Source of the DNA: Actinomycetes bacterium
GTDB lineage: Bacteria > Actinomycetota > Actinomycetes > JAWWOW01
Reading direction: 5' to 3'
DNA: 64,000 nucleotides
Assembly (NCBI GenBank): GCA_045807285.1
Contig: JBJMHR010000021.1
Location: 90,612 to 154,611 of the forward strand
This document shows, piece after piece, positions 14,145 through 36,578 of this stretch (its first letter is position 1; each line of letters begins with the position of its first letter). A model generated the notes under the pieces. That model saw nothing but the letters and a program-made list of their open reading frames with translations, had not been told where the DNA came from and did no database searches. Made by a program: the position numbers and the translations under genes.

Positions 14145-14149
14145 CAAAA

Positions 14150-19457: not shown

Positions 19458-22243
19458 TCCATCTTCCCGGTGTACTGATCGCCGCCGTCGTCCGCACCGG
19501 ACGGGTCGAACTTCGCGGAAATCGACATCGGTGACTTGTTGGCAATGGCCCCGATGGAGGTGTTCTTGGCCTTGACCGAGCCACCGTCCACCTGAACGCT
19601 CACCGACGAAGTGCTAAACGTGCAGACGATCGTGTGCCAACTGCCCTTGGAGAGACTGTTCGCGCTCAACAGGTCGCCGGGACCGGCCTTCCCGTTGGTG
19701 TAGCAGCGCGCGTGGCCGTCTTCCATGATCTCGATCTTCCAGTCCTGGTCGTCGCTGCCCAGGCCTTTGCGGAGCAGGTCGAAGTCACCGACGGCAGCGG
19801 AGGGCCACGCGTCGAACCTCAGGTGCAGGCTGACGGTGAACTTCTTGGTTCCCGGGTTGAGGCTCGAGGAGTGCGGAACGAGCACTCGTGACATCGACCC
19901 GTCGACCTTCGGAAACCCATATGCAATCGCGGCCGAGTGGTCGGCCTGACCGATGGCGACGTTGCGCAGCGTGCCGTCGTTCCCGTAGCCGCTCGAGTCA
20001 TGCATCGTCCCGTCTGCGCCGTCCGCCATGGACCAGTTGGCCACTGTGACGGCACCCGGGCTGCCCACGACCGTGCCGGTGGGCTGCGACATCGCGGACG
20101 TCGAGCTCTGCCCGTACTTGTCCGTCACAGTGACACTGACGGAGATCGTGGTGGCGTCGTCGTACGTTCGCACGAGATAACTCGGGGCCGTGCTCCCGGA
20201 CTCTTCCGGTGCGCATGTGTTGGCATCGGTGCATTGCTGCCACAGATACTGGAACGTCAAGTCGCCAGGCTGGTATGTGTAGCCGTTGTCACTCGGCGCC
20301 CAGCCTCCGGGCGTCGCCGACAGCGTGTCCCCAACCTCAGCAGTTCCCTGTATCGCCGGCAAAGCTGTGTTCACCGGTCCGGTCCCAACGACGACTCCGC
20401 TGGGCGCGGTGTACGCCGTCACCGTGTTGACCGTGTTCGACCTCGTGACGGCGACGACGACGACGCTGTCGCGGTCGGCGTCCACCAACGTGTACTGGGC
20501 CGGTGTTCCGGAGTTCGCGAACACGCCGGTACAGGTGGAGACGTCGGGCGGTACGACGCCTTGCGGGCAGCGCAGCCAGGTGTACGCCGGATCACTGACG
20601 TTCGTCCCGGACCAGGTGCCGGGCGAGACCGTCAACGTCGACTGCACCGCCGTGGCACCGCTGACCGACGGGTTGACGACCACGGCAACAGGTGCGGGCG
20701 CCACCGGCCCTTGCGACGGTGCCGGCGCCGACCCGGTCGAGCTGGCGTCATTGTGACCGGTGACGACGACACGCACGTAGTCGCCGACATCACCGGGACC
20801 GAGGGTGTAGGTGTCGAGCGTCGCGCCCGTGAGATCCGTCCAAGCGGCGTTGTCCGGCGAGGTCTGCCACTGGTAGGTGAACGTCACAGTCGGCGTACCG
20901 CTCCAGGTCCCCGGAGTGGAGGTCAATGTCGCCCCGTCGACCAGCGCGCCGCTCATCGACGGCACTGCGGTGTTGACGGGAGCCGCTGCGCGGGCGACGT
21001 TCGTGCTCGCAGAGGGCGTCGACGCGCTGCCGTCAGCGTTCGTCGAGGTCTCGAGTACCCGGATCGTGTGTCCGACGTCCCCCGACACGAGCGTGTAGCT
21101 CGAGCCGGTTGCCCCGGCGATCGACGTACAAGCAGCGCCGGTGCTATCGCATTGCTGCCAGTTGTGCAGCAACGGCCCCTGGTTGGTCCAGGTACCGACG
21201 GTGACGTGCAGGACGGTGCCGTCAAAGGGCGACGGTTTGTCGATCGTCGGGGGCGCGTTGTTGACCGGCGGGTTAGGGCCGGTGACGACGACGGCACTCA
21301 AGGCGCTGTTCGCCGCCCCGGCGGGGTTCGTCCCGTTCGAGGCGGTGACCGAGAGAACGAGCGTGTCCCCGATGTCGGCGGCCGCAGGGGTGTAGGACGC
21401 CTTCGTCGCGCCGGAGATCGGCTGGCAGTTCGCCCCGACCGAGTCACAACCGTTCCATTGGTAGGCGTAGGTGAACGGAGGCGTGCCGTTCCAGGACCCG
21501 GGCGTCGATGACAACGACTGGCCTGATGTCGGTGTGCCAACGGTAGTGGGGAGCGAGTTGTTCGTCGGCGGCGCGGCTGCGATCAATGCGGTCGACGCCG
21601 ACGTTGCGTTCGAGCTGCCGGCCGTGTTGGTGCCGGTGACCCGAAGCTGGACCGTCTTACCCACATCTGCGTGTGCGAGCTGGTAGGTCGACGCCTTGGC
21701 ACCGCTGATCGAGGAACAGGTCCCGTTGAGGCAGCGCTGCCACACATACGTGAACGTGATCGGGGTCTGCCCGGTCCACGTCCCGTTCGTCGAGGACAGC
21801 AACGCGCCGTCAGTCGGCGTACCGGACACCGTCGGGGCAGCCGTGTTGGCCGGCGCCGCGCCGGCGGTCACAGCGGTGCTCCGGGCGGAGAACGCGGTCT
21901 TGCTGCCCGCCGAGTTCGTCGCGATCACGCGAGACCGCAGCTGCTTGCCTTTGTCCGCGGCGACCACCACATAGGTCGTCGCCGCGGAACCCGAGATGTT
22001 GCTGCACGACCCACCGACAACGCAGCGCTGCCACAGGTAGGTGAACGTCGGCGCGGGACTGCCGGACCACGTGCCGGCTGTCGTCGCCATCGCCTGGCCG
22101 ACCGTCGGCTGGCCGCTCAACACAGGCGCCGTCGTCAACTTCGGCGCTGTCGCGGCATGTGCCTGCCCGGCGGGGATCGCAATGGCGACGGCAATGACGG
22201 CAGGCGAGAGAACGCGTGCCCACTTTCGGCTCGCGTCAGCCAT
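19433..22243 (-). CDS. Secreted protein with seven ~88-aa Ig-like repeats and C-terminal LamG (concanavalin-A-like) domain
   Basis: Signal peptide MADASRKWARVLSPAVIAVAIAIPAGQAHA. Seven repeats with a conserved T.GxWxG.P..TFTY.WQRC...C..I.GA motif. The C-terminal ~200 aa has the Laminin_G_3 pattern (SGYGNDGTL...FTVSLHLRFDAW). Confidence 0.7.
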   Translation of the reverse strand: MADASRKWARVLSPAVIAVAIAIPAGQAHAATAPKLTTAPVLSGQPTVGQAMATTAGTWSGSPAPTFTYLWQRCVVGGSCSNISGSAATTYVVVAADKGKQLRSRVIATNSAGSKTAFSARSTAVTAGAAPANTAAPTVSGTPTDGALLSSTNGTWTGQTPITFTYVWQRCLNGTCSSISGAKASTYQLAHADVGKTVQLRVTGTNTAGSSNATSASTALIAAAPPTNNSLPTTVGTPTSGQSLSSTPGSWNGTPPFTYAYQWNGCDSVGANCQPISGATKASYTPAAADIGDTLVLSVTASNGTNPAGAANSALSAVVVTGPNPPVNNAPPTIDKPSPFDGTVLHVTVGTWTNQGPLLHNWQQCDSTGAACTSIAGATGSSYTLVSGDVGHTIRVLETSTNADGSASTPSASTNVARAAAPVNTAVPSMSGALVDGATLTSTPGTWSGTPTVTFTYQWQTSPDNAAWTDLTGATLDTYTLGPGDVGDYVRVVVTGHNDASSTGSAPAPSQGPVAPAPVAVVVNPSVSGATAVQSTLTVSPGTWSGTNVSDPAYTWLRCPQGVVPPDVSTCTGVFANSGTPAQYTLVDADRDSVVVVAVTRSNTVNTVTAYTAPSGVVVGTGPVNTALPAIQGTAEVGDTLSATPGGWAPSDNGYTYQPGDLTFQYLWQQCTDANTCAPEESGSTAPSYLVRTYDDATTISVSVTVTDKYGQSSTSAMSQPTGTVVGSPGAVTVANWSMADGADGTMHDSSGYGNDGTLRNVAIGQADHSAAIAYGFPKVDGSMSRVLVPHSSSLNPGTKKFTVSLHLRFDAWPSAAVGDFDLLRKGLGSDDQDWKIEIMEDGHARCYTNGKAGPGDLLSANSLSKGSWHTIVCTFSTSSVSVQVDGGSVKAKNTSIGAIANKSPMSISAKFDPSGADDGGDQYTGKMDQVVVTSG

Positions 22244-24509
22244 CGAGTCCTCGCGTTTCAGTTGGGTCTCGACTTGACAGAGTGGTCAGGCGCCGGATTC
22301 GTACGACGAGGCGCCCAGCAATCCGGACAGCACGGCGCCGCTGGAGCCCGGCCCCGTCACCGAGCAACCGAGGCCAGCTGACGCTCAGCCGGTGCTGCGT
22401 CCGGAGCAGGTGCTGCCGCCACCGCGGCAGCCGGCGGAGTTGGTCGAAGCTCAGCCCGACGTAGGGCTGCCAGGCAGTCCGGTATCCCAGGCCGTACGCG
22501 TTGACAGGCAGGTCGCCGGGGAAGCCCGGGGGGGGTCCCGCGATGTCGTAGGAGTCGCGGAAGCCGCGCGGCGGGTCGGCGTACCGGTGCAGGAACTCGA
22601 AGTCGACGACGTAGACGCGGCCAGTGGCCGTAACGATCAGGTTGCCCGGCGTGAAGTCGATGAGCGCGACCCCCTGCGCGAACAGGTACTCCGCGACGGC
22701 CATCGCCTCGTGCACCACGCTCAGGGGCAGCAGACGTGGATGCCTACGGTCGAAGCGCAGCGTGTTCTCGCGGTACGGAAGTACGACGGAGTCCGCGTCC
22801 GCACTCACGAGCGGAAGGAGCTGGCGGCTACCGGGCGCAAGCTGCTCGGCAACGAACCGCTCGCGGGCGGCGAACCGCTCACATCCCGGTCGAAATCGCT
22901 TCCGCACCTGCAAGTCACCATCGTGCGCAACAAGCTCGATGCGGGCCCGTCGCCCGTGCGCCGTGAGCTCACGGATGCAGTCCGGCGCGGGGGCAAATGC
23001 CGCCGTCAGCTGTTCGGTTCGGCTGATCAGCCGGCGCGCGAGCCGCGGCAGCGCGCACTTCAGATAGTCGACGGCCTCATCGGCGTTGTCGCTCGAATGC
23101 AGGATGTTGCACTGCTCGGAGGCGGCCCGGGTCGCGTTGAACTCATCGCGGATCTCGCGCTTCACGAGCAAGCGAGCGTTGCCGAGCGCGGGCCACGTCT
23201 GCCGCCTGCGCGCGTCCACCGGAGCCGGCATGACGTCGACGGCGACGACGACGATCGCTGGCGGGCCGCCCGAGATGGGATACGGCCCGCGTTCCCAGTT
23301 CCCACCGCGAACCGCGGTGGCGACACGATCTCTCGCCGCGCAGTCGAGCGGGCTCGTGTGCAGCACGGTGAAGCCCTCGGCTGCGATGCGCGCGACGATG
23401 CCGTCGACCGCACCGGCAGCCACCGCCTGCTCGCGGATGAAGAAGACGGCGAGACCGTCAACCGCGTCTCCCGTCGGCCGGCTCGCGAGCTGCGCCGCCC
23501 ACGGGTTGATGACGGCCAGCCGATGCAGCACGTCCCGTGACGGTCGCAGGCCGTGCTCGCTCAGGACTGCGTCGAGTTCCTGCAGCGATCGAGGCGGCTC
23601 GATGCCGGCAACCGTCGCCGTTCGAGCCAGCGCGGTGAGGTAGTCGTGGTCGCGGCACTGCTCTGGCGCGTCACCGCGGTGCACGGGCAAGCCGCTCGCT
23701 GCCCCCTTGTGGTAGGCGACGTGGTAGGCGAGCGCCAGAAACGCGTCATGCGGGTTCGGCACCGGAAAGCGGCCGCGGAGCAGCTCGGCGCGCGCCACGA
23801 TGCGCTGCGCGAGCCGCGGCGGAAAGTAGGCCATTGCCTGGAAGTCGGTGCCGGGTAGCCCGGACACCGAGTAGACGTCGCATGGTTCGGTGCCGGGCCG
23901 CTCCGCGAGCACTGCGTCGACCAGCGGAAGGTCCTGATCGCGCACGAGCAGGTCGAGGTCCTCCCCCGGCGGCAGGTCCGGTAGGTCGTCGTACCACCGA
24001 AGGACGACGAACTGCGCGCCCGCCGCCGTCAACCGGTCGAGGAACCCGCCGGGGCCGTCCGCGGCGGAGTACCACCGTCGCGCCGTCGGCTCGCGTTGAC
24101 GCACCACAGAGAACAGGTCGGCGCGCACCGCCGAGTCGGCAAGGTTCACCTGACCGCATGCCTGCAACCTGCCGCGGGCGAGGTCGCGGCGGATTCGGAC
24201 GATGCCCGCTGGCCGGGCGCGGGTGCGCAGGACCGCGACGTGCGCTGCACCGCTGAGGTCACGGAACCGCAGGCCGGCCACGTTGACTCGTGGATCGAGC
24301 AGTACGACGTCCGTGCTCGAGCGCCGTACCCGAGCGGGCCAGTCGGCATCCGGAGGCACCACTAAGCAACGCTCGCCCCATGTCCGCAGCAGCAGTCCGG
24401 ATACGCGGTCGTCCGCCGTCACGGCGATCAACCGCCCGCGGCCGCTGGCGGCGGCAGCAAGAGCGCCGGTCCGCGCCGGTTCTGCGACAGCAGTGCTCAT
24501 ACGAGACAC
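22236..24509 (-). CDS. Large cytoplasmic protein: N-terminal NTP_transf_5-like nucleotidyltransferase domain fused to C-terminal Kdo/WaaP-like kinase-fold domain
   Basis: N-terminal AGAQFVVLRWYDDLPDLPPGEDLDLLVRDQD matches the uncharacterised nucleotidyltransferase (hhLKG...DhDLLV) pattern. C-terminal LIDFTPGNLIVTATGRVYVVDFEFLHRY matches the protein-kinase-like HGD..PGN...hDFE catalytic/Mg loops. Confidence 0.55.
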   Translation of the reverse strand: MSRMSTAVAEPARTGALAAAASGRGRLIAVTADDRVSGLLLRTWGERCLVVPPDADWPARVRRSSTDVVLLDPRVNVAGLRFRDLSGAAHVAVLRTRARPAGIVRIRRDLARGRLQACGQVNLADSAVRADLFSVVRQREPTARRWYSAADGPGGFLDRLTAAGAQFVVLRWYDDLPDLPPGEDLDLLVRDQDLPLVDAVLAERPGTEPCDVYSVSGLPGTDFQAMAYFPPRLAQRIVARAELLRGRFPVPNPHDAFLALAYHVAYHKGAASGLPVHRGDAPEQCRDHDYLTALARTATVAGIEPPRSLQELDAVLSEHGLRPSRDVLHRLAVINPWAAQLASRPTGDAVDGLAVFFIREQAVAAGAVDGIVARIAAEGFTVLHTSPLDCAARDRVATAVRGGNWERGPYPISGGPPAIVVVAVDVMPAPVDARRRQTWPALGNARLLVKREIRDEFNATRAASEQCNILHSSDNADEAVDYLKCALPRLARRLISRTEQLTAAFAPAPDCIRELTAHGRRARIELVAHDGDLQVRKRFRPGCERFAARERFVAEQLAPGSRQLLPLVSADADSVVLPYRENTLRFDRRHPRLLPLSVVHEAMAVAEYLFAQGVALIDFTPGNLIVTATGRVYVVDFEFLHRYADPPRGFRDSYDIAGPPPGFPGDLPVNAYGLGYRTAWQPYVGLSFDQLRRLPRWRQHLLRTQHRLSVSWPRLLGDGAGLQRRRAVRIAGRLVVRIRRLTTLSSRDPTETRGLDG

Positions 24510-25240
24510 GGCGCGAGGGCGGCTTGCTTGACCGCTTGCTTCGCGCTGTCTGCTGTTTTGTTCGCTGCCGTCACCACGCCGGAGGCCTGCCGAACGACAT
24601 CGGAGGTGACCTTGTCGTTGGCGGCGATCGACGCGTGCACCGAGTCGACGACCTTCGAGGGCCCGGTGACCAGTGGGTGCGCAGCGACCGCGTTGTACAG
24701 CACTTCCAAGGCCTGCAACGCACGGATGCGTGCCTTGCCATAGTCGGCGCGGGCGCTCCGCACACCCGTCACGGCGTGCGCGATCGAGGCGAGCTGAGCG
24801 CGGGTCGGTCGAAGCGCCTTGTCAGCAGCACGGGAGGCAGCGAAGGACGCGGCACAGTCGCCGGCCTGGCCGGCTGAGTAGGCCCGCCCGATCTGACGTT
24901 GGACCGCAGCGATCTCGGCCGTGAAGCGGCCCATGGCGGGACCCAGCCCGGACTGTGAGCCCCGCGCGCGCACCGCTGCCGCGGCGGCGTCGAGCGCGCC
25001 GAGGGCATCTTCGACCGATGCCTGCGCCCGCACGAGATCCGGCGGGCGGCCGGCGTTTCGCCGCACTGAGCCGATCGTGCCGGGCGCCGGCGGTGCCGGG
25101 GCCGGTGCCGTCGTGCGAGTGGTCGGGGCGGCCTGTGGCTTCAGGGCATGCCCGCTCGATCCGCTGCCGGCACCACATGCCGTCACGCCGAGGGCGATTC
25201 CCGCGACCACAGCTGCAGCGCTGCGGGTGAGGGTGCTCAC
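24497..25240 (-). CDS. Ala-rich secreted lipoprotein, function unknown
   Basis: The GTG start at 25240 overlaps the epimerase stop (GTGA). The lipobox is LGVTAC. The rest is alpha-helical and Ala-rich. The ORF-track N-terminal extension to 25522 is rejected as R/H-rich junk. Confidence 0.5.
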   Translation of the reverse strand: MSTLTRSAAAVVAGIALGVTACGAGSGSSGHALKPQAAPTTRTTAPAPAPPAPGTIGSVRRNAGRPPDLVRAQASVEDALGALDAAAAAVRARGSQSGLGPAMGRFTAEIAAVQRQIGRAYSAGQAGDCAASFAASRAADKALRPTRAQLASIAHAVTGVRSARADYGKARIRALQALEVLYNAVAAHPLVTGPSKVVDSVHASIAANDKVTSDVVRQASGVVTAANKTADSAKQAVKQAALAPCLV

Positions 25241-26265
25241 TTGTCCCTGACCTGAGGTGTCGTGATGTCGACGCTCTGGGCGCCGACCATGCGTTCGGGC
25301 TTGGCCAACCACCGGACGTCGCGGCGGTGCCGATGCCAATGCACCTGCTCGGCGATGCCGGCGCGCAGTGAGACGTGCGGCGTCCAGCCCAACAACTGTG
25401 CAGCTCGACTGATGTCGGCGGCTGTCTTGTCCACGTCGCCCGCTTGCGCAGAGACGGTTTCGCTGTCCACCGCCAGGCCAACGGCCTGCGAGATGATCCG
25501 TAGCAGTTCGTTCACCGTGCATGCGCCGCCGCCTGCGATGTTGACGGTGGTGCCTGGCGGCAGGTCGGTCGCCTCGCCCGCACGGATCGTGGCAGCGACG
25601 GCATCGAGCACGAAGGTGAAGTCGCGGACCTGCTCCCCGTCACCGAAAACCATGGCCGGGTGCCCGTCGAGTGCCGACTCGATGAACCGGTGGATGCCCA
25701 TGTCCGGCCGCTGCCGCGGTCCATAAACGGTGAAGTAGCGCAACGAAGTTGTCGGGACGCCGTAGTTGGCGGCGTACAGATGACACAGGTGTTCGGCCGC
25801 GAGCTTGGTCACGCCGTAGGGGCTGTGCGGTGCCGGTAAAGCGTGCTCGTGGGTCGGGTAACCAGCGGCGTTGCCGTACACCGACGAGCTCGACGCGTAG
25901 ACGAACCGCGTCAGGGAGTCAATGTGCCGGCACTCTTCGAGGAGGCGTTGCGTGACCATCACGTTCTGTTCGACGTAGCCCCTGAACCCTCGCTCCCACG
26001 ACGGCCGCACACCGGGTTGGCCGGCCAGGTGGAAGACGACCTCGGCCCCGGACAGGATCGAGCGCAGTTCGCTGCGACCGAGGTCGCGAGCGAGGAACTG
26101 GAAACGTTGGTGCGTGAGGTACGGCGCGATGTTCTCCTGCTTCTGCGCCGGGTCGTAATAGGGGGTCAGCGCGTCCACGCCGACGACATCGTGCCCGGCG
26201 CCGAGCAGCCGCTCGACCAGAAAGCTCCCGATGAAACCGGCCGCCCCCGTGACGACGACTCTCAT
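25237..26265 (-). CDS. NAD-dependent epimerase/dehydratase (UDP-sugar 4-epimerase-like, extended SDR)
   Basis: VVTGAAGFIGSFLVERL Rossmann motif. YASSSSVYG and the YGVTK catalytic YxxxK. Confidence 0.85.
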   Translation of the reverse strand: MRVVVTGAAGFIGSFLVERLLGAGHDVVGVDALTPYYDPAQKQENIAPYLTHQRFQFLARDLGRSELRSILSGAEVVFHLAGQPGVRPSWERGFRGYVEQNVMVTQRLLEECRHIDSLTRFVYASSSSVYGNAAGYPTHEHALPAPHSPYGVTKLAAEHLCHLYAANYGVPTTSLRYFTVYGPRQRPDMGIHRFIESALDGHPAMVFGDGEQVRDFTFVLDAVAATIRAGEATDLPPGTTVNIAGGGACTVNELLRIISQAVGLAVDSETVSAQAGDVDKTAADISRAAQLLGWTPHVSLRAGIAEQVHWHRHRRDVRWLAKPERMVGAQSVDITTPQVRDK

Positions 26266-26280: not shown

Positions 26281-28008
26281 CTACTCGGCCCGCACGCGGC
26301 GCGTACTGCTCGTCGCCGGTGGCAGCCGTCGCAGCTTTGCGGCGGCGGACCGCCCGGTCGGCTGCTCCTCCTCCTGCTCGACCGCTCGCGGACGAGGTAC
26401 GCCCGCGTCGAGGTCGATGGACACCCGTGGGCCGAGCGGTGCCCAACCCTTCTCGCCCAGGCCGACCAGACCCATGCAGGGCAGGTTCAGCCGGCGAAGA
26501 TCGAGCACCGATGCATGCAGTCCGGCACGCGTTGCGTGCCCGACCCGGGCCACGACAACGCTCGAGTCGGCGGCGCTCACGAGCGGGATGACCTCGCCGG
26601 AGCTCATCATCGGCGGGCTGTCGACGATGACGATGCCGACCTCAGCCAGCTGCGCGAAGATCCCGGTCAGTGTTGCCCGCATGAACGACTCCGCGGGGTT
26701 ACGGTCCGAGCCGCCCGATGGCAACAGGTAGCTGTTCGGACCCACCTCGACGAGGAGCTCGCGCGCATCGTGCGCCGTACCGTCAACGAGCTCAGCGAGC
26801 CCCGGGCGTGCCAACGTCCGGTGCACCCGGTCGAGCGTGCGATCGCGGAGGTTCGCCGAGACGACGACGACCGTTCGTCCCTGGTTCGCGAGCGACTGTG
26901 CGAGGTTCAACACAAAGGTCGTCTTGCCGCCGCCGTCCTCGGGACTCAGGATGGCGAGCACCTTGACCGACGTACCGAGGCCCGCGAGCTGCAACGCGCT
27001 GCGGGTCCGTTGGATCGCTTCGGCCGCAGGGCTGTGCGGCTTGGCGTTGACGGCGATACGGCCACCTCGAACGCTGGCCATGGTCGGAATCACGCCGAGC
27101 AGCGGCAACCCGGTGAGGGCTTCCGCCTCGGCCGAGGACGCGAGCCGCCGACGCAACGCCTCGACCACGCACGCGGTACCAACGCCGACGAGCAGTCCGA
27201 GCACGAGCCCGGCAACGAGCAGCACACGGCGGCTCGTCGGGTGCTGCACGGTGCGCACGATGACCGGGCCGGCGACGGAGGTCGGCAGGCCCTTCAGCGA
27301 CTGCTGTGCCCGCGCGCTGCTGAGTGCGGAAACGGTGGACTCGTACGCCTTGGTGGCGACCTGTAGCTGCGCAGCGGTGAGCGCGCTCGTGACATGGCCG
27401 GCGCTGGCCTGGCGCTCTGCGTCAGCCTGACGCGACCAGGCAGCGACCTCCTTGAAGTCGCTGTTGGACTGCGCCGTGAGCGTTGCCACCAGCGACGCTT
27501 GTGCCGCCGTTGCCGCCTTGTTCCGACTGGCGACGTACGTCGCGACGTACGCGCGGATCACCCGACCGGTCAACCCGGCATCGTGATCAGTGAAGGTCAG
27601 GTCGACCCACGTCGTCCCGGTGACAGGCTTGGCGCTGAGCTTCGACAGGCCGCTCACACCTGAGTTCGCCTTGTTTGTCTGGTCGAGGTGACCGGCACGT
27701 GCGCCCAGTGACTTCAGCGCAGCCGCCATCACCGTCGGGTCGGCGTACCGGGCGACACCGTTGCCGCTGTTGCCGCTTCGCGTGGTCGACGTACCGGCGG
27801 AGGCCGCCTTCTCCGAGCCGAACGCCTTGATGTCCACGCGTTGCGAGGCGGCGTAGGTGCGCGTGTTCGTCGTGACCAGCGGGACCACAAGGGCACCGAG
27901 CAGGCCGCCCAGGGCCACCGAGACCAGCACGATGACGCGATGGCGCCAGGCCGCACCGAGGTAGTCGCCGAGCGCCGGCGTGGGATTCATCGACTCATAG
28001 GTCGCCAT
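26281..28008 (-). CDS. Polysaccharide co-polymerase / BY-kinase (Wzc/CpsD-like) homolog lacking C-terminal Tyr cluster
   Basis: N-terminal TM + Wzz-like periplasmic region + second TM. P-loop LSPEDGGGKTTFVLNLA and Walker B VIVDSPP. The C-terminal 60 aa contain no Tyr. Confidence 0.8.
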   Translation of the reverse strand: MATYESMNPTPALGDYLGAAWRHRVIVLVSVALGGLLGALVVPLVTTNTRTYAASQRVDIKAFGSEKAASAGTSTTRSGNSGNGVARYADPTVMAAALKSLGARAGHLDQTNKANSGVSGLSKLSAKPVTGTTWVDLTFTDHDAGLTGRVIRAYVATYVASRNKAATAAQASLVATLTAQSNSDFKEVAAWSRQADAERQASAGHVTSALTAAQLQVATKAYESTVSALSSARAQQSLKGLPTSVAGPVIVRTVQHPTSRRVLLVAGLVLGLLVGVGTACVVEALRRRLASSAEAEALTGLPLLGVIPTMASVRGGRIAVNAKPHSPAAEAIQRTRSALQLAGLGTSVKVLAILSPEDGGGKTTFVLNLAQSLANQGRTVVVVSANLRDRTLDRVHRTLARPGLAELVDGTAHDARELLVEVGPNSYLLPSGGSDRNPAESFMRATLTGIFAQLAEVGIVIVDSPPMMSSGEVIPLVSAADSSVVVARVGHATRAGLHASVLDLRRLNLPCMGLVGLGEKGWAPLGPRVSIDLDAGVPRPRAVEQEEEQPTGRSAAAKLRRLPPATSSTRRVRAE

Positions 28009-28029: not shown

Positions 28030-28932
28030 TCATGCGATGCCCCACCCGTCGAACGGGCCGCGCACGTAGGGACGGATACGTCGGACGTCAACGGCCAGCC
28101 GGGACTGCAACTCGGCACGTACGTCCGGGGAGATCTCCACCATGTCTTGCAAGTCCGGTTGCAGCGCTTCGCGCCGTCGCAATCGGGTCTTGACGGTGCC
28201 TGGGAGCGCCCGCGCTACGCCTTGCAACACGGGATGACCGACAGCGCGTGGTCGGGTACGGAAGCGCGTCGCTCGGTTCAGGTGTGGTACGTCGTTGCGG
28301 GGCACCCATGACGTGTCGACGCCCAGGAAGCCGAACACTTCCCGCATCGCCGCGCGTGGCTCCTGCCAGAGCCATTCCGACGTGATCACGCAGACCCGAC
28401 CGGCCGGGTAGTGCTCCAACCACTGATCGAGCTGCAGCGCGTAGGAGCTTGCGTCCACGTACTTCGGTTGGCCGAGCAGCGCGCCGCCCGCGGAGCCGTA
28501 CCGGCCGATCCGCGACCAGCCCGCCGGCGGCGTGCCGACCACCGCGCGGCGCACGTCGTGCTCGTATTGCGACCGCATGCGCTCGATCGGCTCGCGTACG
28601 ACGTACACCAGGCGCGCTTGCGGAACGACCGACGCGGCACGCCCGGCGACGCCGGCGAGCTGCGGGCTCTGCGTGTACGTGACGGAGGCCTCACCGCGAA
28701 CCGCTTTATGTGCGCCCTTGGTGAACTGCTGCGCGTACCACGGCACGCCCTGGCGCCAGTTGCGCTCAGCGACGAAGAAGTGCAGCTCCTTCGGCTGGGA
28801 CATGAAGATCTCGGGGTGCTCGGACAGGGCCTGGTGCAGGCTCGTCGACCCGGCACGCATCGCGCCGATCACAAGGAGGTTGGGCAACGTGGTTGCGCTT
28901 GCGGCGGCGGTCATAGCTTGCTGGACTGCCAT
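28030..28932 (-). CDS. Sulfotransferase family protein (paralog 3)
   Basis: LLVIGAMRAGSTSL. KELHFFVAERNWRQGVPWY. LVYVVREPIERMRSQY. Confidence 0.8.
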   Translation of the reverse strand: MAVQQAMTAAASATTLPNLLVIGAMRAGSTSLHQALSEHPEIFMSQPKELHFFVAERNWRQGVPWYAQQFTKGAHKAVRGEASVTYTQSPQLAGVAGRAASVVPQARLVYVVREPIERMRSQYEHDVRRAVVGTPPAGWSRIGRYGSAGGALLGQPKYVDASSYALQLDQWLEHYPAGRVCVITSEWLWQEPRAAMREVFGFLGVDTSWVPRNDVPHLNRATRFRTRPRAVGHPVLQGVARALPGTVKTRLRRREALQPDLQDMVEISPDVRAELQSRLAVDVRRIRPYVRGPFDGWGIA

Positions 28933-30092
28933 TTCGTGTCCACGTGCAACGGCGCGAGACGCACGATCGCCTTGGGCACCGACTGCAGGGCCGGCCCGGT
29001 CACCTCGAACCGCCGCGCTGGGTGCCAGGGAAGGATGTCGCGCTTGCGGTCGAATACGCCGACCCAGAGGCAGTAGCTGCCGCGCGGCAGCGGCAGGTGG
29101 TCGATCACGCAGGAGATCTCTGTCTCGCCTGCGGCGAGCTGCTCATCGCGTCGGACGACGAAGATCGGGGTGGCCGTTCCTTGGCTGACGCCGATCACGA
29201 CGTTGGCCTGCGTGGCCCACGGTGCCTCGACGATGAGTGACACTGTTAGTGATTTGCCCGTCGTGGGCACGCTGCGTCCGGGACCGCTGACCTGCGCCTT
29301 GAGCAGCTGCAGCAGACCGTCGACCGGGATGTTGAGCTCGGCCGCCTCCTCCACCGAACGGCGGTAGTGCCCGAGCACCTCGGAGACCGGCCCGTCCTGC
29401 TGCACCTCGCCCTGGTCGAGCCAGATCCCCCTGGTGCAGGTCGCCTCCACCGCTGCGAGGTCGTGGCTGACAAACACCAACGTCGTACCGGTGGACAGCA
29501 CTTCGCGCATCCGGGTGAGGCACTTCTGCTGGAAGGACGCGTCGCCCACGGCGAGCACCTCGTCGACGAGCAAGATGTCCGGCTCGAGGAAGGCCGCAAC
29601 GGCGAAACCGAGCCGCATCTGCATACCGCTCGAGTAGAACTTCACCTGCCGGTCGATGGCCTCGGGGATCTCCGAGAAGTCCACGATCTCGTCGAACCGG
29701 CGCGCGACCTCCTTGCGCGGCAGCCCGAGCAGCGAGCCGTAGACGTAGATGTTCTCCCGACCGCTCAGGTCAGGAGAGATGCCGGCCCGCACCTCGATGA
29801 GCGCGCCTACCCGCCCAGCGGCCGCGACACTGCCGGCGTACGGGTACATCACGCGCGTGAGCAGCTTCAACAACGTGGACTTGCCGGAGCCGTTCGCGCC
29901 GAACAGGCCCACTGACTCGCCGGGCTCGGCCCGTAGGTTGATGTCGCGCAGCACCATGCGGTAGCGCGTGTCCAGCTCGCCCTTCATCTTGCGCGACATC
30001 CGGTCGACGTGGTCGCGCAGCAACATGCGATGACGGTCAGCCCGGAATCGCTTCCACACGTGGTCAGCGCGGATTTCGCCCTCACGCAACAT
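28911..30092 (-). CDS. wzt: ABC transporter ATP-binding protein, O-antigen/teichoic-acid export type (Wzt-like) with C-terminal carbohydrate-binding extension
   Basis: Walker A GANGSGKSTL. Signature YSSGMQMRLGFA. Walker B ILLVDEVLAVGD. About 150 aa beyond the NBD resembles Wzt_C. Confidence 0.85.
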   Translation of the reverse strand: MLREGEIRADHVWKRFRADRHRMLLRDHVDRMSRKMKGELDTRYRMVLRDINLRAEPGESVGLFGANGSGKSTLLKLLTRVMYPYAGSVAAAGRVGALIEVRAGISPDLSGRENIYVYGSLLGLPRKEVARRFDEIVDFSEIPEAIDRQVKFYSSGMQMRLGFAVAAFLEPDILLVDEVLAVGDASFQQKCLTRMREVLSTGTTLVFVSHDLAAVEATCTRGIWLDQGEVQQDGPVSEVLGHYRRSVEEAAELNIPVDGLLQLLKAQVSGPGRSVPTTGKSLTVSLIVEAPWATQANVVIGVSQGTATPIFVVRRDEQLAAGETEISCVIDHLPLPRGSYCLWVGVFDRKRDILPWHPARRFEVTGPALQSVPKAIVRLAPLHVDTKWQSSKL

Positions 30093-30936
30093 CGGCGATG
30101 CCGCCTTCGAGCCGTTTGAAGAGCCAGTAGCCCACGACGAACAGCGAGCTTGAGACCAGGGTGGCCACGCCGAGCATCGGCCAGTCGGGCGCTTGGTTGT
30201 ACAGAACCGTCCTGCGGTAGCCGTCGATGACCACCGCGAGCGGGTTGATCACCTGGTAGAGCGTTCGCATGCTCGCAGGGACGTCGGCCAGGCTGTAGGC
30301 GACAGGGGTGGCGAACAGGCCCAGCTGCAGAAAGACCGGCAATGCGTACCGCAGGTCACGCAGGTACACGATGGTGATTGCCGCGAACAGCGTCAGCCCG
30401 AGCGTCAGCAGGACTTGCACGATCATGAACAACGGCACATACACCGAGGCGGGCTGCGGCGAGGTCTGGAAGATGAAGAACAGCGCCACGAGTCCGCTCA
30501 GCGCCATAGTCGTGTCGACGGCCGCCACCAGCATGGACCCGATCGGGAAGACCTCCCGCGGGCAGTAGACCTTGTTCAGCACCGGCACGTTGTTGACCAG
30601 GCTGAGACCGCCGACGTTCAGGCTGCTCGAGAAGAACGTCCACGGCAGCAGACCGAGGTACGAGAAGAGCGCATAGTGAGTGGTGCCGTGGTTGACGTGT
30701 GCAATGCGCTGAAAGAACAAGGTGAAGACGAGCATCAGAGCTACCGGCGTCAGTAGCGCCCAGGCAACGCCCAAGAAGGCCTGCTTGTAGCGCACCCGGT
30801 AGTCGCGTTCGGCCAACGTCCAGATGAGCTCGCGCGATTTCCAGAGCTCACGAACGGACGTGACGACGCCCGTGCGACGTCGAAATCGCAGGGATGCGGG
30901 CGGGCCGTCGAGGAGAGTGGCCGCGGCGGTGGTCAC
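30082..30936 (-). CDS. wzm: ABC-2 type transporter permease (Wzm-like)
   Basis: Six TM segments. The LAERDYRVRYKQAFLGVAWALL ABC-2 N-terminal motif is present. It overlaps the wzt start by 11 nt. Confidence 0.85.
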   Translation of the reverse strand: MTTAAATLLDGPPASLRFRRRTGVVTSVRELWKSRELIWTLAERDYRVRYKQAFLGVAWALLTPVALMLVFTLFFQRIAHVNHGTTHYALFSYLGLLPWTFFSSSLNVGGLSLVNNVPVLNKVYCPREVFPIGSMLVAAVDTTMALSGLVALFFIFQTSPQPASVYVPLFMIVQVLLTLGLTLFAAITIVYLRDLRYALPVFLQLGLFATPVAYSLADVPASMRTLYQVINPLAVVIDGYRRTVLYNQAPDWPMLGVATLVSSSLFVVGYWLFKRLEGGIADVA

Positions 30937-31048
30937 GCTCGAACAGAGACAGGGCGGTCTGCCCTGATACGTCGCAGCCGGCGTGTATCACTCAGTGGCT
31001 GTCTCGGCTCTAGTCGGCGCTGACACAAGTGCACGACCAGGAGGCGAG
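30937..31048. promoter_or_regulatory. Divergent intergenic control region between wzm-led minus operon and pqqD-like-led plus operon
   Basis: 112 bp. Perfect hairpin/palindrome CAGGGC-ggtct-GCCCTG at 30950-30966. AGGAGG SD at 31038-31043. Confidence 0.4.
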
Positions 31049-32340: not shown

Positions 32341-33528
32341 GTGACACAGACCGTCGCACCTGCGACATCGCGTGTGCAGGGCGCTGCACGCGTCCGGGTC
32401 CTACACGTCATCACACACCTCGACCACGGCGGCGCCCAGGACAACACCCTGCTGACGGTCGCCGGGCTCGACCACTCGGCATACGTCGTCGACGTCGCCG
32501 CCGGACCGGGCGAGCTCGAGGCTTATGCCCGGACCATCGCGCACGACGTGCGCATCCTGCACAGCCTCAAGCGCCCGCTGCTCGATCCCGGCGCCATCCA
32601 GACATTTCAGCAGCTCGCCGCCATGAGCCGCGACTACGACATCGTTCACACGCACGGCTCCAAGGCCGGCGTGCTCGGTCGGCTGGCCGCGCGTATGTTG
32701 CACGTGCCTGTCGTCGTACACACGGTGCACGGGATGCCGGTGAACGACTTCATGGGCCGAACACAGCGACGGATACTGCTGGCAGCCGAACGTACAGCGG
32801 CTCGGTGCGCCGACGCGATCATCTGCGTCTGCGAGGAGAACCGGCAGGAAGCGCTCGACCTTCGGATCGCGAAGCCACGGCAACTGCGCGTCGTCGTCAG
32901 CGGCATCGACGAACGATCGGTCACCGCGGGCGTCGGGGCGCGCGTGCGGGCTGAGCTCCGCATACCGCCAGACGCGCCCGTCGTCGGCAGTGTCACGCGG
33001 CTGATGGAGCAGAAGGCACCCCTCGACCTGATTGCGGCGATGCGCACGGTCGTCGAGGAGCGCGGCGATGCGCACTGCATGGTCGCGGGCGAGGGGCCGT
33101 TGTACGACGCCGTCATAGCGGCCGCCCGGGACCACGCCCGCATCCATGTGCTCGGTTACCGCGATGACATCGCGGACATCATCGCTGCGACCGACGTGGC
33201 GGTGTACAGCTCGCTATGGGAGGGCCTCGGGCGCGCGCTGACCGAGTCCGTCCTAGCCGGCCGCCCGGTGGTCGCTACCGCCGTAAACGGCGTGCCGGAC
33301 CTCGTGCGCGACGGCGTGACGGGATATCTCGTGCCACCCCGTGACCCCGCGCTGCTCGCGCGTCGCACCCTGGATGTGCTTGCGCTACCGGACCGTGGCG
33401 TGGCGATGGGCGCGGCCGGCGCGGCGAGCGTCCGGGGCAAGTACGGCGTCGAACAGATGGTTGCCGGGATCGATGCGACCTACCGCGAGCTACTGGAAAC
33501 CAAGAACGTTCGGGTGCCGCCATGTTGA
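32341..33528 (+). CDS. Glycosyltransferase family 4 (GT-B, retaining)
   Basis: GTG start with a GAGGAGG SD. GGAQ N-terminal motif and the E-x7-E region (EGLGRALTESVLAGRPVVATAVNG). 395 aa. Confidence 0.85.
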   Translation: MTQTVAPATSRVQGAARVRVLHVITHLDHGGAQDNTLLTVAGLDHSAYVVDVAAGPGELEAYARTIAHDVRILHSLKRPLLDPGAIQTFQQLAAMSRDYDIVHTHGSKAGVLGRLAARMLHVPVVVHTVHGMPVNDFMGRTQRRILLAAERTAARCADAIICVCEENRQEALDLRIAKPRQLRVVVSGIDERSVTAGVGARVRAELRIPPDAPVVGSVTRLMEQKAPLDLIAAMRTVVEERGDAHCMVAGEGPLYDAVIAAARDHARIHVLGYRDDIADIIAATDVAVYSSLWEGLGRALTESVLAGRPVVATAVNGVPDLVRDGVTGYLVPPRDPALLARRTLDVLALPDRGVAMGAAGAASVRGKYGVEQMVAGIDATYRELLETKNVRVPPC

Positions 33529-34829
33529 TGACGCTCCTCGCCGCAACGACGGCAGCGCTGCCGCTGCTCGTGCCACGTGGGCCCGGCAACACCGCGCCGG
33601 TCGACATCTTCGCGGCGCTTTTCGTGCTCGCAGTCGTTGTGCAGACCCTGCTGTCACGTCGGCGCGGCATCGTCGTGCCCGCCGCCGGCCCGCTGTTGCT
33701 GATCGCGCTCGTCAGCGCCAGCGCAGTGCTCTTCAGCGTCGCCCCCGGCACCGGGCTGCTGAACCTGCTGATCGAGGCATACCTCGTCGCACTGCTCTGG
33801 GCGGCGTGCAGTGAGCTTCGTGGCCGACCGGACCGGATGGCCGTGATCACCTCGGTCTGGGCGGTCGCCGCCGTCTTCTGGGCCTTCCTGCTGGTAGGAA
33901 CGCAGTGGCATCTGTTGCCCGGGGGCCTGCAGCACCTGCTGCTCGAGAACGACAGCTCAGGACGTGCCGCAGCCGCCGCGCGCAATCCCAACCTCGCCGC
34001 GAGCTTCCTCGTCACCTCTGTCTTCGTTGTAATGGCCTCGCCCTGGCCGCGATCGCGCCTCGTCCGCGGCGGTATCTACGCCTGGCTGATGACAGCGGTC
34101 GTGGTGTCGGGCTCCAACGGCGCGCTGCTGGGAGCCGCCGCGGGCGGCGTACTTCTGCTGGCCTTGCGGATCATCCGCCGGTCGTCACGGATCGGTCGGT
34201 CGCTCGTGCGCGCCTCGGTCGCAGTTGCCGCCGGCATCGCGATCTTCGCCGTGGCTGAGGCATCGCCCACCGTCAACCAGGCGACAGCGGACAAGATCGC
34301 GCAGAGCAGTCACAGCAACGGCGCCTTGCGCGACAACGTCGGGCGCATCAACAACAGCGTGTCGACACGGGTGTCCATCTGGTCGTCAGCGCTGCACGGC
34401 GGCTTCGACCACAGTGCGCTCGGCGTCGGGGTCGGCGAGGCGCAGACGATCCAGGTCGGCGGCCAGGCGCTCGGCAAGAGTCTGCACAACGACGTGCTCG
34501 CCTTCCTGCTCGAGCGCGGCGTCGTCGGACTTGCTGCTCTCCTGCTTCTCGTCGCCGTCGTGCTGCGGTGGAGCAGCCGACTCGCGCGGGCCGGACCCGT
34601 GCGCATCGACGGCCGACTGTGGCGCCTGCAAGGGCTGGCGGCAGCAGTCACCGCGAACCTCGTGATCTCGCTGACCCACGAGTCATACCACTTCCGGCAC
34701 CTGTGGCTGTTGCTCGCTCTCGTGTGGGCCGCTTCCGATCTCGTCGCGGTGAGGTCACCGGCACGAGTCCCCGCACCGGCGCGATCGTTCGTGCCGGTGC
34801 CGATGCGGAGCATCCGTGTACCGGCCTGA
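33522..34829 (+). CDS. O-antigen ligase/polymerase (Wzy_C) family membrane protein
   Basis: About 11 TM helices. Wzy_C loop with GSNGALLG...SLHNDVLAFLLERGVVG. A 7-nt overlap with the upstream GT4 gene. Confidence 0.7.
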   Translation: MLMTLLAATTAALPLLVPRGPGNTAPVDIFAALFVLAVVVQTLLSRRRGIVVPAAGPLLLIALVSASAVLFSVAPGTGLLNLLIEAYLVALLWAACSELRGRPDRMAVITSVWAVAAVFWAFLLVGTQWHLLPGGLQHLLLENDSSGRAAAAARNPNLAASFLVTSVFVVMASPWPRSRLVRGGIYAWLMTAVVVSGSNGALLGAAAGGVLLLALRIIRRSSRIGRSLVRASVAVAAGIAIFAVAEASPTVNQATADKIAQSSHSNGALRDNVGRINNSVSTRVSIWSSALHGGFDHSALGVGVGEAQTIQVGGQALGKSLHNDVLAFLLERGVVGLAALLLLVAVVLRWSSRLARAGPVRIDGRLWRLQGLAAAVTANLVISLTHESYHFRHLWLLLALVWAASDLVAVRSPARVPAPARSFVPVPMRSIRVPA

Positions 34830-35724
34830 CCGCAAAGTCGGCTTGCTCACCGGTGCGGACGGGCCGGCGTTCGCGATCGACCAGGCCACGCTCGACGACA
34901 TCGGCCTCGAGGTTGTCGAGACGAACGGAGCCCTGCCATTGCAGCTGCCGCGACGACAGGTCGTCGTCAGCGAAAGCGCGCTCGAAGACACCAAGACAGC
35001 CGACCGGCTGGCGTCGTTAGCCCTCGGCGGCCTGCACGTCATCCGGTTCGCGGACTACTACGAGCGGCGGCAACGCCGCGTGCTGCTGGATGCGGTGGAC
35101 GAACGCTGGTTCTTCTTCGACACGCCCCTGCGGGCGCGACCGGCGTACTCCATCTTCAAATCGGTGACGGACCTGGTCGCGGGTCTCGTCGGCTCGTTGC
35201 TCGTGCTGTTGGTGATCCCGTTCGTCTGGGTTGCCGTCCGGCTCGACGACGGCGGCCCGATGCTGTTCCGGCAGGAACGCGTCGGCCTTCGCGGCCACAC
35301 CTTCGACATCTGGAAGTTCCGCACGATGCACGTCGACGCCGAGGCCGCCGGTCCATCGTGGGCAAGCGCAGCCGACGAACGCATCACTCGCGTGGGTCGG
35401 TTGCTGCGACTCAGCCGGCTCGACGAGCTGCCGCAATTCTTCAACGTCATCGCGGGCCAGATGAGCCTGATCGGACCGCGGCCGGAACGCCCCGTTTTCG
35501 TCCGTACGCTCGGTCGAGCCATCGCGTACTACGACCGGCGGCACATGACCAGGCCCGGGATCACGGGCTGGGCCACCGTGCGGTTCGGGTACGGCGACAG
35601 CGTCAACGACAAGTGGCGCTCACACGCCTACGACCTGTACTACCTGAAGCACCGGTCGATCCGGCTCGACCTCGAGATCCTCGCCCGCACCGCCATCGTG
35701 ATGCTGCTCCGGCGCGGGCAATGA
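34816..35724 (+). CDS. Polyprenyl-phosphate glycosyl-1-phosphate transferase (bacterial sugar transferase, WbaP C-terminal-domain type)
   Basis: One TM. Contains PMLFRQERVGL, FDIWKFRTM, DELPQFFNVIAGQMSLIGPRP and RPGITGWA motifs (PF02397). Confidence 0.85.
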   Translation: MYRPDRKVGLLTGADGPAFAIDQATLDDIGLEVVETNGALPLQLPRRQVVVSESALEDTKTADRLASLALGGLHVIRFADYYERRQRRVLLDAVDERWFFFDTPLRARPAYSIFKSVTDLVAGLVGSLLVLLVIPFVWVAVRLDDGGPMLFRQERVGLRGHTFDIWKFRTMHVDAEAAGPSWASAADERITRVGRLLRLSRLDELPQFFNVIAGQMSLIGPRPERPVFVRTLGRAIAYYDRRHMTRPGITGWATVRFGYGDSVNDKWRSHAYDLYYLKHRSIRLDLEILARTAIVMLLRRGQ

Positions 35725-36578
35725 TCGCCACACGTGCGGAAACGCCGCGGATCTCCGTCGTCATGACGGTCTACAACGGCGAGCGTTACATTTCCGACGC
35801 CATCGAGAGCATCCAGCAACAGAGTCTGCGCGACTTCGAGCTCATCGTGGTGAACGACGGCTCGACCGACCAAACCACGGGGATCCTCGCTGCTCTCGAC
35901 GACCCGCGCGTGCACGTCATCCAGCGCCCGCACGTGGGGCGGGTGCCGGCGCTGAACGAGGCACTGTCGCGGTGTCGCGCGCCGTACGTCGCGAACCTGG
36001 ACGCCGATGACGTGGCCCTACCGGGTCGGCTCGAATGGACCACGGAGTTCCTCGACGCACACCCCGACACAGTCGCGATCGGTTCGGGTTGGGAGCCCTA
36101 CGTGCAGTCGCCCAGCCGGGCCCCGCGACGGCTGCCGCGCAGTGACCGCGCGATCCGGTGGAGCTTCTTGTTGCGCAACCCGATGTTCAACAGCTCGGTC
36201 ACATATCGCACCGACGCACTACGCGCGATCGGTGGATTCTCGATGGCGTACGCCGACCGCCTGCACGACGCCGATGCGGTGTTGCGCATCGCAAGCCACG
36301 GCCGGCTGCGCAACCTCGATCAGGCACTGTCGGCGCGCCGGCTGCATGAGCTCCAGCACTTCGCCCGAGTCGACGCCGGTCGCCGGGCCGCGCTGCACGC
36401 TCAGATGCGGTGGCGGGCGGCAAGCCTGCTCGGCTTTCCGCCGTACCTCCGACCGCTGGCCTACACCGTCGCGACCGTGGCAGCGACCCGGTCGCTATTC
36501 GTCATCGGCGTGCTCGGTCGCAACGGCCGGGTCGACCGACGGCGGGCGGTCCGGCCGGCACCTGCCGAGGCGCGGTGA
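35721..36578 (+). CDS. Glycosyltransferase family 2 (GT-A)
   Basis: ATGA overlap start. ISVVMTVYNGERYISDAIESI...ELIVVNDGSTD and DADD motifs. Confidence 0.85.
   Translation: MIATRAETPRISVVMTVYNGERYISDAIESIQQQSLRDFELIVVNDGSTDQTTGILAALDDPRVHVIQRPHVGRVPALNEALSRCRAPYVANLDADDVALPGRLEWTTEFLDAHPDTVAIGSGWEPYVQSPSRAPRRLPRSDRAIRWSFLLRNPMFNSSVTYRTDALRAIGGFSMAYADRLHDADAVLRIASHGRLRNLDQALSARRLHELQHFARVDAGRRAALHAQMRWRAASLLGFPPYLRPLAYTVATVAATRSLFVIGVLGRNGRVDRRRAVRPAPAEAR

Follow-up and report, generated by a model that had tools for sequence, protein, structure and literature searches.

The gene cluster described here lies in a 64-kb stretch of DNA from an uncultured soil actinomycete (Actinomycetes bacterium, contig JBJMHR010000021.1; the whole stretch is called the window below) and, judging by its genes, very probably serves in the synthesis and export of a sulfated surface glycan. 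Its exporter is a Wzm/Wzt pair of the ATP-binding cassette (ABC) type. The ATPase, Wzt, continues behind its nucleotide-binding domain (NBD) into a β-sandwich that is predicted to be a carbohydrate-binding domain (CBD), and the next gene, which overlaps wzt, encodes a sulfotransferase (ST) that we call ST3. We consider it fairly likely that the cluster encodes an ABC-dependent pathway by which the actinobacterium makes a sulfated surface glycan, with the divergent and basic Wzt CBD docking a sulfated part of the substrate. The epitope read by the CBD could be a terminating cap or a repeated internal sulfate, as the data fit either. The coordinates of all features are given in Table 1.

The window has a GC content of about 67%, and GC at third codon positions of wzt is 0.89. 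Pfam ABC_tran matched residues 48 to 179 of the Wzt protein (E = 7e-20). The closest solved relative of the NBD was Wzt of Aquifex aeolicus (6amx/7k2t; E = 5e-55 over residues 44 to 244), followed by TarH/TagH (E = 1e-44 to 1e-50) and then mycobacterial Wzt. The NCBIfam models for TagH and galactan Wzt matched partially and below their equivalog cutoffs. The window ATPase belongs to the Wzt/TagH-type ABC-2 exporter ATPases. Tyr243 in the hinge helix aligned with the Tyr at residue 233 of chain 7k2t_A, but TarH, which has no CBD, also carries a Tyr at the equivalent position, so this residue does not discriminate between the two types.

A preliminary description of the window, made from the letters alone, had pointed to an extension of about 150 residues behind the NBD. 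We found it to run from about residue 245 to residue 393 (about 149 residues). Its sole family match was a faint one to Pfam Wzt_C (PF14524; E = 0.17), which at 12.3 bits did not reach the gathering score of 30.4 bits. Used as a query, the extension retrieved only 21 relatives, all of them metagenomic and at most 57% identical, and the alignment of these relatives served to build an AlphaFold model of the domain as a monomer. The model (pLDDT, 85.6) showed an eight-stranded β-sandwich behind a hinge helix. When we compared it with the PDB by Foldseek, the best 14 matches were all Wzt CBDs. The matches included the CBDs of A. aeolicus (8dky/6o14; root mean square deviation of about 3.2 Å), Raoultella terrigena O12 (5hno/5hnp), and Escherichia coli O9a (2r5o). 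Two independent structural methods both ranked Wzt CBDs first, at the same place in the protein, and the sandwich stands directly behind the NBD with the fold of 2R5O, 5HNO, and 6O14. The preliminary description had made its proposal depend on a CBD fold comparable to that of E. coli O9a Wzt; given the Foldseek matches, such a fold is predicted to be there.

At the sequence level the domain was far removed from known CBDs. Its family profile retrieved no Wzt CBD from the PDB sequences, and an hhalign comparison with canonical actinobacterial Wzt_C gave a probability of 4%. With Pfam, the PDB profile search, and hhalign all failing to provide a link, the predicted connection to known CBDs is structural only, and on the evidence of the model we place the domain in the Wzt-CBD structural class as a new sequence family. 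The family has the motifs GVSEGPATPIF, LPLPRGR, LLPWHP, and PRAIVRLAPV..W in common, and in the monomer model the C-terminal strand of the window domain (residues ~385 to 392) carries an invariant Trp. A search with the family alignment found at least 160 loci, 80 in GTDB genomes and 80 in metagenomes (numbered with the prefix L below). Those in GTDB genomes belonged nearly all to uncultured Actinomycetota, and the host groups were Acidimicrobiia, Solirubrobacterales, Frankiaceae, Jiangellaceae, and Mycobacteriales. The 80 metagenome loci came from the alignment-based scan, whereas a scan with a single CBD sequence gave no match. A profile from one alignment (A1) had retained about 80 NBD positions, and its match counts, mostly NBDs, were not used. 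Of the 80 genome loci, 75 had wzm upstream of wzt. Even on a conservative reading, a large branch of actinobacterial exporters that bear CBDs escapes Pfam Wzt_C.

In several metagenome-assembled genomes (MAGs) of Solirubrobacterales and Acidimicrobiia, convergent nonribosomal peptide synthetase (NRPS) genes with condensation, adenylation, thiolation, and thioesterase (C-A-T-TE) modules were found behind wzm/wzt genes with the same C-terminal domain family (L017, 6681-10634; L025, 5688-12884; L033, 9387-15218; L047, 10450-14769). These neighbors hint that the exporter family may also handle nonpolysaccharide or lipopeptide-linked products.

ST3 is an ST dependent on 3'-phosphoadenosine-5'-phosphosulfate (PAPS). 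It scored above the Pfam gathering thresholds for Sulfotransfer_3 (50.7 bits; cutoff, 27) and Sulfotransfer_1 (44.4 bits; cutoff, 22). Its translation contains GAMRAGSTS and VVREPIERMRS, which we take to be the PAPS-binding 5'-phosphosulfate (5'-PSB) and 3'-phosphate (3'-PB) motifs. The protein has a single domain, neither a transmembrane (TM) segment nor a signal peptide, and no coiled coil. The preliminary description had counted it as the third ST paralog; it is indeed an ST, but the window has five (ST1 to ST5), with pairwise identities of 30 to 39%. All five are located within 30 kb, which is unusually dense for a bacterial locus, with ST1, ST2, and ST5 standing 10 to 17 kb away on either flank. 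We found no TM segments in the window STs.

The overlap between wzt and the ST gene also held up, although its length had been given as 22 nt, the value obtained from the most upstream ATG of ST3 (position 28932). A second ATG at position 28914 produces a 4-nt overlap with the wzt stop codon (ATGA). Because the orthologs in L081 and L082 start precisely at this 4-nt overlap (ATGA and GTGA), the true overlap is probably 4 nt. The ATGA coupling secures coexpression of ST3 with wzt, and ST3 is the best candidate for the maker of the sulfated epitope read by the CBD. The ST3 orthogroup (the window, L001, L081, L082, and L086; bootstrap support, 37/50) is always encoded immediately behind wzt. We also considered a single clade of all wzt-proximal STs, but only the ST3 orthogroup was supported, the wider grouping reaching 11/50. 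In L008, L016, and L041, the gene directly behind wzt encodes another Sulfotransfer_3 subfamily, and in L087, L090, L092 to L094, and L144 the convergent ST that lies downstream of wzt belongs to the ST5 orthogroup. The wzt-ST coupling was kept among syntenic loci whose identity was as low as about 50%, a value taken from the kinase-like protein that led to L082.

The orthologous operon in L082 offers a further link to sulfation. Between the epimerase gene and the kinase-like gene, in the slot that a small lipoprotein-like gene occupies in the window, it has a fused PAPS synthase gene (8289-10004; PUA_2, ATP-sulfurylase, and APS_kinase), which is also present in L083. The presence of this gene within the orthologous operon ties the operon directly to sulfation. 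In the window itself, no PAPS-synthesis gene was found among the part of the open reading frames (ORFs) that was scanned with Pfam.

The charge of the CBD differed between groups of loci. The CBDs of the window's cluster family (n = 16) had a net charge of +2.25, compared with -2.5 for the remaining loci that contain an ST (n = 48) and -4.1 for loci without one (n = 97) (P = 3e-9 and 5e-5 [by Mann-Whitney tests without phylogenetic correction]). The family-specific basic positions include R314, K392, and the β6-β7 loop D348-R-K-R351, which is followed by the invariant W355. Among the first 80 loci we did not observe ST-specific basic residues, and the charge signal became visible only after loci of the cluster family of the window were included.

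Together with the known functions of the protein families, these results suggest the following course of events. The Bac_transf protein would prime polyprenyl phosphate, and the GT4 and GT2 glycosyltransferases would build the chain on the cytoplasmic face of the membrane. The five soluble PAPS-dependent STs, including ST3, would then sulfate the lipid-linked glycan; sulfation would precede export, given that PAPS is found in the cytoplasm and that the STs lack export signals. Wzm2Wzt2 would export the finished chain, and, as its computed fold and charge suggest, the net-basic CBD would most likely dock the anionic sulfated part of the glycan and thereby license transport. Outside the membrane, the Wzy_C protein may ligate the glycan to an acceptor, and the tyrosine-kinase co-polymerase may modulate the process. 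Some points weigh against this proposal. The sulfation of the window glycan is inferred from genes. Besides being uncorrected for phylogeny, the charge comparison includes many incomplete contigs. The invariant motifs of the C-terminal domain lie mostly in loops and are common to ST-free and NRPS-adjacent loci, so they may serve in dimerization or NBD contact instead of ligand binding.

The preliminary description had proposed a narrower role for sulfate, as a cap. In this scenario, ST3 would sulfate the nonreducing terminal hydroxyl and stop chain growth, the Wzt CBD would read the sulfate, and only capped chains would be exported. We regard it as possible but unlikely. [quoted passage not shown] The terminator gene wsaE of Geobacillus stearothermophilus overlaps wzt in a similar manner (PMC2943079). 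In line with a sulfate cap, we found no methyltransferase, WbdD-like kinase-methyltransferase, or Kdo-type terminator in the cluster or its syntenic relatives, and no methyltransferase among the window ORFs scanned, whereas Actinotalea locus L084 pairs a canonical Wzt_C domain with a methyltransferase+APH protein. The invariable place of the ST3 orthogroup behind wzt points the same way, as does the distinct subfamily that holds this place in L008, L016, and L041. Among loci with enough downstream sequence, 8 of the 10 close relatives of the CBD (identity of ≥54%) had a codirectional ST behind wzt, as did 3 of the 53 distant ones (≤50%). Vertical inheritance of one operon type confounds this enrichment, however, and across the ST-containing genome loci an ST occupied the +1 slot 7 times, which is no excess over random placement (5.3 expected). 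The basic CBD places its DRKR loop at the equivalent of the A. aeolicus "trap loop," an equivalence that comes from strand order without residue-level superposition; in A. aeolicus, this β6-β7 loop and the Trp that follows it form the cap pocket (PMC9445017).

Other observations fit a terminal sulfate less well. The five STs are ancient and divergent paralogs, which suggests sulfation along the chain, and together with the PAPS synthase in the L082 operon they favor dense internal sulfation. In L093, L103, and L144, whose CBDs are 45 to 55% identical, the only ST is a convergent one of the ST5 or ST4 orthogroup, and L046 passes from wzt straight to the co-polymerase gene with no ST between them. 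No ST was present within 10 kb in 45 of the 80 genome loci, and yet the invariant CBD motifs were unchanged; L003, L004, L005, and L010 are among the ST-free close relatives. A methyltransferase does not appear to replace the ST in such loci, as only 4 of 124 neighboring proteins carried a methyltransferase domain. With no substitute methyltransferases in ST-free loci and with NRPS genes paired to others, the C-terminal domain family is not tied to a single cap chemistry. We also identified no coiled-coil ruler protein. The cap proposal has in its favor the conserved coupling of ST and wzt, the lack of another candidate terminator in the cluster and its syntenic relatives, and the basic CBD, but nothing in the data separates a terminal cap from sulfate along the chain. 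In our literature search, which did not extend to the census of Mann, Kimber, and Whitfield from 2019, we found no paper that links Wzt or its CBD with sulfate. That census is said to cover CBDs and to predict new terminator chemistries.

The Actinotalea locus (GCA_009733795.1) is itself of interest as a textbook-like capped-glycan locus, encoding a Wzt with Pfam Wzt_C and a 559-aa methyltransferase+APH protein that resembles WbdD.

A domain that is no specific glycan reader would account for part of the data. The C-terminal sandwich could be a structural or regulatory appendage involved in dimerization or NBD control, with the ST gene placed next to wzt by the operon packing of modification genes. 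The invariant residues are identical with or without an ST and fall mainly in loops and the C-terminal strand, and the same domain family stands beside NRPS genes. Moreover, the ST-free loci have no consistent alternative terminator, and the domain has no sequence homology to proven CBDs. We nevertheless think this quite unlikely, as Wzt CBDs lead the structural matches in two independent methods at the same position of the protein and the CBD net charge tracks ST presence, which would be unexpected for a purely structural domain. Less probable still, and very unlikely, is that the 757-aa kinase-like protein of the operon caps the chain with a phosphate or phospho-derivative, as a WbdD-like terminator with a C-terminal helix. 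The AlphaFold model of this protein (pLDDT, 92.5) has a protein-kinase-like domain at residues ~505 to 695, for which Foldseek matched Rio2, LanKC, and eukaryotic-type protein kinases, and a basic C-terminal helix of 50 residues. The gene is kept in L001, L081, and L082, and WbdD-type terminators do contain a kinase (PMC3482155, PMC11231755). The protein is 100% identical to one from an NCBI MAG labeled "Actinomycetes bacterium" (locus-tag prefix ACJ735), and exact-sequence look-ups of the window Wzt gave no record. The 757-aa protein had 122 homologs, a few with Pfam Pkinase, and its family has an N-terminal enzyme-like region with invariant D184, H267, RGGNW401-405, and HSSD471-474. In L084, however, a homolog is present beside the separate methyltransferase+APH protein and canonical Wzt_C, which means that this homolog does not serve as the terminator in Actinotalea. 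A homolog in L085 lies amid LamG/PKD proteins without Wzm/Wzt, another is fused to a Wzx-type flippase domain, and only 1 of the 80 genome loci of the C-terminal domain family has the protein. The contexts of L084 and L085 led us to disfavor the 757-aa protein as a WbdD-like terminator.

The ~750-aa kinase-like family is widespread and unannotated, occurring in Actinomycetota, Planctomycetota, and Gemmatimonadota. Its genes tend to adjoin those for LamG-domain secreted proteins and polysaccharide genes.

The assembly mode turns on the Wzy_C protein. The preliminary description had noticed this protein, which we confirmed, and had left its role ambiguous between a ligase and a polymerase. A polymerase needs a partner Wzx that supplies repeat units, while a ligase works behind any exporter. 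No Wzx-type flippase was found in the 64-kb window, which encodes no large polytopic protein apart from the Wzy_C protein and a major facilitator superfamily (MFS) transporter. Within the cluster, the Wzy_C protein is the only polytopic protein besides Wzm, Wzm/Wzt is the sole exporter, and a WbaP-type primer is present. The same trio characterizes the Gram-positive S-layer glycan pathway, which combines a WbaP-type primer, Wzm/Wzt, and the Wzy_C oligosaccharyltransferase WsaB (PMC2943079). Given this likeness and the lack of a Wzx in 64 kb, we favor a ligase or oligosaccharyltransferase by analogy, although an unlinked wzx may exist. The Wzy_C sequence had no match in the PDB, and its orthologs are encoded in L001, L081, L082, L103, and L144.

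We compared the cluster with known export systems. It resembles capped O-antigen export (E. coli O9a/O8, Klebsiella pneumoniae O12, and A. aeolicus) in its wzm-wzt pair, with the NBD closest to that of A. aeolicus, and in a C-terminal β-sandwich of about 140 residues that has the same position as the CBDs of those systems and is structurally closest to them. As in those systems, the proposed pathway finishes the glycan in the cytoplasm and then exports it. The terminators WbdD or WbbB accompany a Wzt CBD in E. coli O9a/O8 and K. pneumoniae O12. In the window, by contrast, the CBD has no sequence homology to Pfam Wzt_C, and the cluster had no detectable methyl, methyl-phosphate, or Kdo terminator or coiled-coil ruler. 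The CBDs of the window family are net basic, STs are neighbors, and the operon includes a gene for a tyrosine-kinase co-polymerase. Since the host is an actinomycete of the Gram-positive type, the exported glycan is not lipopolysaccharide. Closer in this respect is the slg cluster of G. stearothermophilus (WsaP, Wzm/Wzt, WsaE, and WsaB), which is Gram positive and ABC dependent, has a WbaP-type primer, and shares overlapping stop and start codons among wzm, wzt, and the next gene, a Wzy_C-domain protein (the final transferase in slg), and a linked surface protein gene. The gene that overlaps wzt in slg encodes a methyltransferase-rhamnosyltransferase for a 2-O-methyl cap, whereas in the window it encodes a single-domain ST. 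The window also has no rml genes, and its CBD belongs to a different sequence family.

Sulfated capsules are made by Cobetia and Vibrio through ABC-dependent (Kps) pathways with cluster-encoded STs (PMC11766843, PMC11641403). As in these clusters and the synechan (xss) cluster of Synechocystis, the ST genes, and in L082 also the PAPS-synthesis genes, are inside the polysaccharide cluster. Sulfation must be cytoplasmic in all of them, and the exporter of Cobetia and Vibrio is likewise an ABC transporter. However, Cobetia and Vibrio use KpsMT without a CBD, and Synechocystis uses Wzx/Wzy for synechan. In all three, it is the repeat units that carry the sulfate, for which no part in licensing export has been proposed, and the hosts are Gram-negative bacteria or cyanobacteria rather than Actinomycetota. 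The mycobacterial Wzm-Wzt (Rv3783/Rv3781) and TagGH/TarGH belong to the same ABC-2 subfamily as the window exporter, giving its best NCBIfam partial matches and strong PDB matches, and share with it actinobacterial or Gram-positive hosts and polyprenyl-linked polymer substrates. The solved TarH/TagH and mycobacterial Wzt chains have 260 to 280 residues, too short for such a C-terminal sandwich, and the substrates of the mycobacterial galactan exporter and TagGH/TarGH are not sulfated.

Sulfated polysaccharides are regarded as uncommon among bacteria other than cyanobacteria and a handful of marine Gammaproteobacteria (PMC8205485, PMC11766843). The locus and its relatives predict heavily sulfated surface glycans in uncultured soil actinomycetes, which would leave the cell through a Wzm/Wzt pump whose substrate-reading domain belongs to a new sequence family. 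To our knowledge, no sulfated polysaccharide from Actinomycetota has been characterized. The domain family is found in at least 160 loci, and about 15 have the complete cluster type. Should the basic CBD read sulfate, it would represent a fourth export-licensing chemistry beside methyl, methyl-phosphate, and Kdo, and it would offer a small natural sulfo-glycan-binding module, along with a set of STs, for the engineering of sulfated polymers. It is also possible, though unlikely, that, in this soil Actinomycetota lineage, a terminal O-sulfate added by the wzt-coupled ST is the chain-terminating cap read by the basic CBD. That would be the first sulfate-gated checkpoint of polysaccharide export and a bacterial counterpart to the sulfation-mediated chain termination of animal glycosaminoglycans.

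The cluster consists of two divergent operons. The minus-strand operon runs from wzm, the stop of which overlaps the wzt start by 11 nt, through wzt, ST3, and the genes for the co-polymerase/tyrosine kinase, the epimerase, the small lipoprotein, and the 757-aa kinase-like protein to that for the secreted Ig/LamG protein. On the plus strand, genes for a PqqD-like protein and an HprK-related kinase are followed by those for a GT4 enzyme, the Wzy_C protein, Bac_transf, GT2, GT4, a lipoprotein, GT4, and ST4. GT4 and GT2 are the only glycosyltransferase families in the cluster.

Table 1. Features of the glycan cluster in the window and of a contrasting locus in Actinotalea
Feature	Position	Strand	Evidence or remark
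wzt ORF	28911-30092	-	393 aa; ATG start
wzt, NBD including hinge-helix Tyr243	29361..30092	-	aa 1-244; matches to ABC_tran and A. aeolicus Wzt
wzt, C-terminal β-sandwich domain	28914..29321	-	aa ~258-393; predicted Wzt-type CBD of a new sequence family
wzm, ABC-2 permease	30082..30936	-	Pfam ABC2_membrane, E = 1.3e-8; NCBIfam galactan_ABC_perm, partial
ST3, sulfotransferase coupled to wzt	28030..28914	-	Alternative ATG at 28932
Co-polymerase/tyrosine autokinase (Wzc-like)	26281..28008	-	NCBIfam EpsG, eps_fam, and Wzc, partial; Pfam AAA_31
NAD-dependent sugar epimerase/dehydratase	25237..26265	-	Pfam Epimerase, E = 2e-57; NCBIfam partial matches
Small lipoprotein-like ORF	24497..25240	-	No Pfam match; translation and counterpart in L081; start approximate
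757-aa kinase-like protein	22236..24509	-	AlphaFold and Foldseek; conserved operon member
Secreted Ser/Thr-rich Ig-like/LamG protein	19433..22243	-	Pfam IG_AIR9, SCAB-Ig, and Laminin_G_3; signal peptide
PqqD-like small ORF	30983-31447	+	Subthreshold match to PqqD (E = 2e-4)
HprK-related kinase A-like gene	31440-32321	+	Subthreshold match to TIGR04352 (E = 6e-9)
GT4 glycosyltransferase	32341..33528	+	Glyco_trans_1_4, E = 1.5e-31
Wzy_C-family polytopic membrane protein	33522..34829	+	Wzy_C, E = 2e-12; 10 predicted TM segments
Bac_transf, initiating polyprenyl-phosphate sugar-phosphate transferase	34816..35724	+	Bac_transf, E = 2e-59; EPS_sugtrans, E = 1e-83
GT2, GT4, lipoprotein (37759-38895), GT4	35730..40118	+	Pfam for the glycosyltransferases; starts of GT2 and middle GT4 approximate
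ST1	16194-17111	+	Pfam
ST2	18083-18928	+	ST HMM built in this study, E = 4e-105
ST4	40108..41028	+	Sulfotransfer_1, E = 6e-16
ST5	45395..46246	+	ST HMM built in this study, E = 3e-104
L084 locus, Wzt with Wzt_C and methyltransferase+APH protein	3337-4551 and 13314-14993		Contrast locus (coordinates of L084)

The entire arrangement is kept in a Frankiaceae MAG (L001) and two JGI contigs (L081 and L082). The minus-strand operon is conserved in these three and in L086. A rearranged layout is found in L087 to L094, L103, and L144, where the orthologous genes for the primer, GT2, lipoprotein, Wzy_C protein, and co-polymerase are codirectional with wzm-wzt. Orthologs of the genes from GT2 to the last GT4 occur in L001, L088, L090, and L093.

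The co-polymerase gene comes behind the ST gene in all syntenic loci. Wzc-like co-polymerases are normally tied to Wzy-dependent pathways; in Actinomycetota, such a gene accompanies wzm/wzt-CBD exporters in 26 of the 80 genome loci. A tyrosine phosphatase (Y_phosphatase3) is encoded at positions 12840-13634 of the window. The Ig/LamG protein, whose gene ends the operon and is kept behind the kinase-like gene in L081 and L082, combines, in 936 residues, roughly nine Ser/Thr-rich Ig-like repeats with a C-terminal LamG domain. Like S-layer proteins, it could be the glycan acceptor, or it could act as a lectin. The PqqD-like and HprK-like genes, divergent from wzm, are also paired in L081 (2146-3439), and we take this pair to resemble the peptide-recognition element and kinase pairs of lasso-peptide clusters.

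Beyond ST4, the minus strand encodes a 610-aa secreted protein (41025-42857) with two Cys/Trp-rich modules of about 270 residues and a Pro/Ser-rich linker. This protein had no Pfam or NCBIfam match and no homolog in the related loci. The cluster is flanked by genes for regulators (43400-45328 and 50299-52302), comprising an extracytoplasmic function (ECF)-type sigma factor, a LuxR-type response regulator, and a GGDEF-EAL protein, which may control the production of the glycan.

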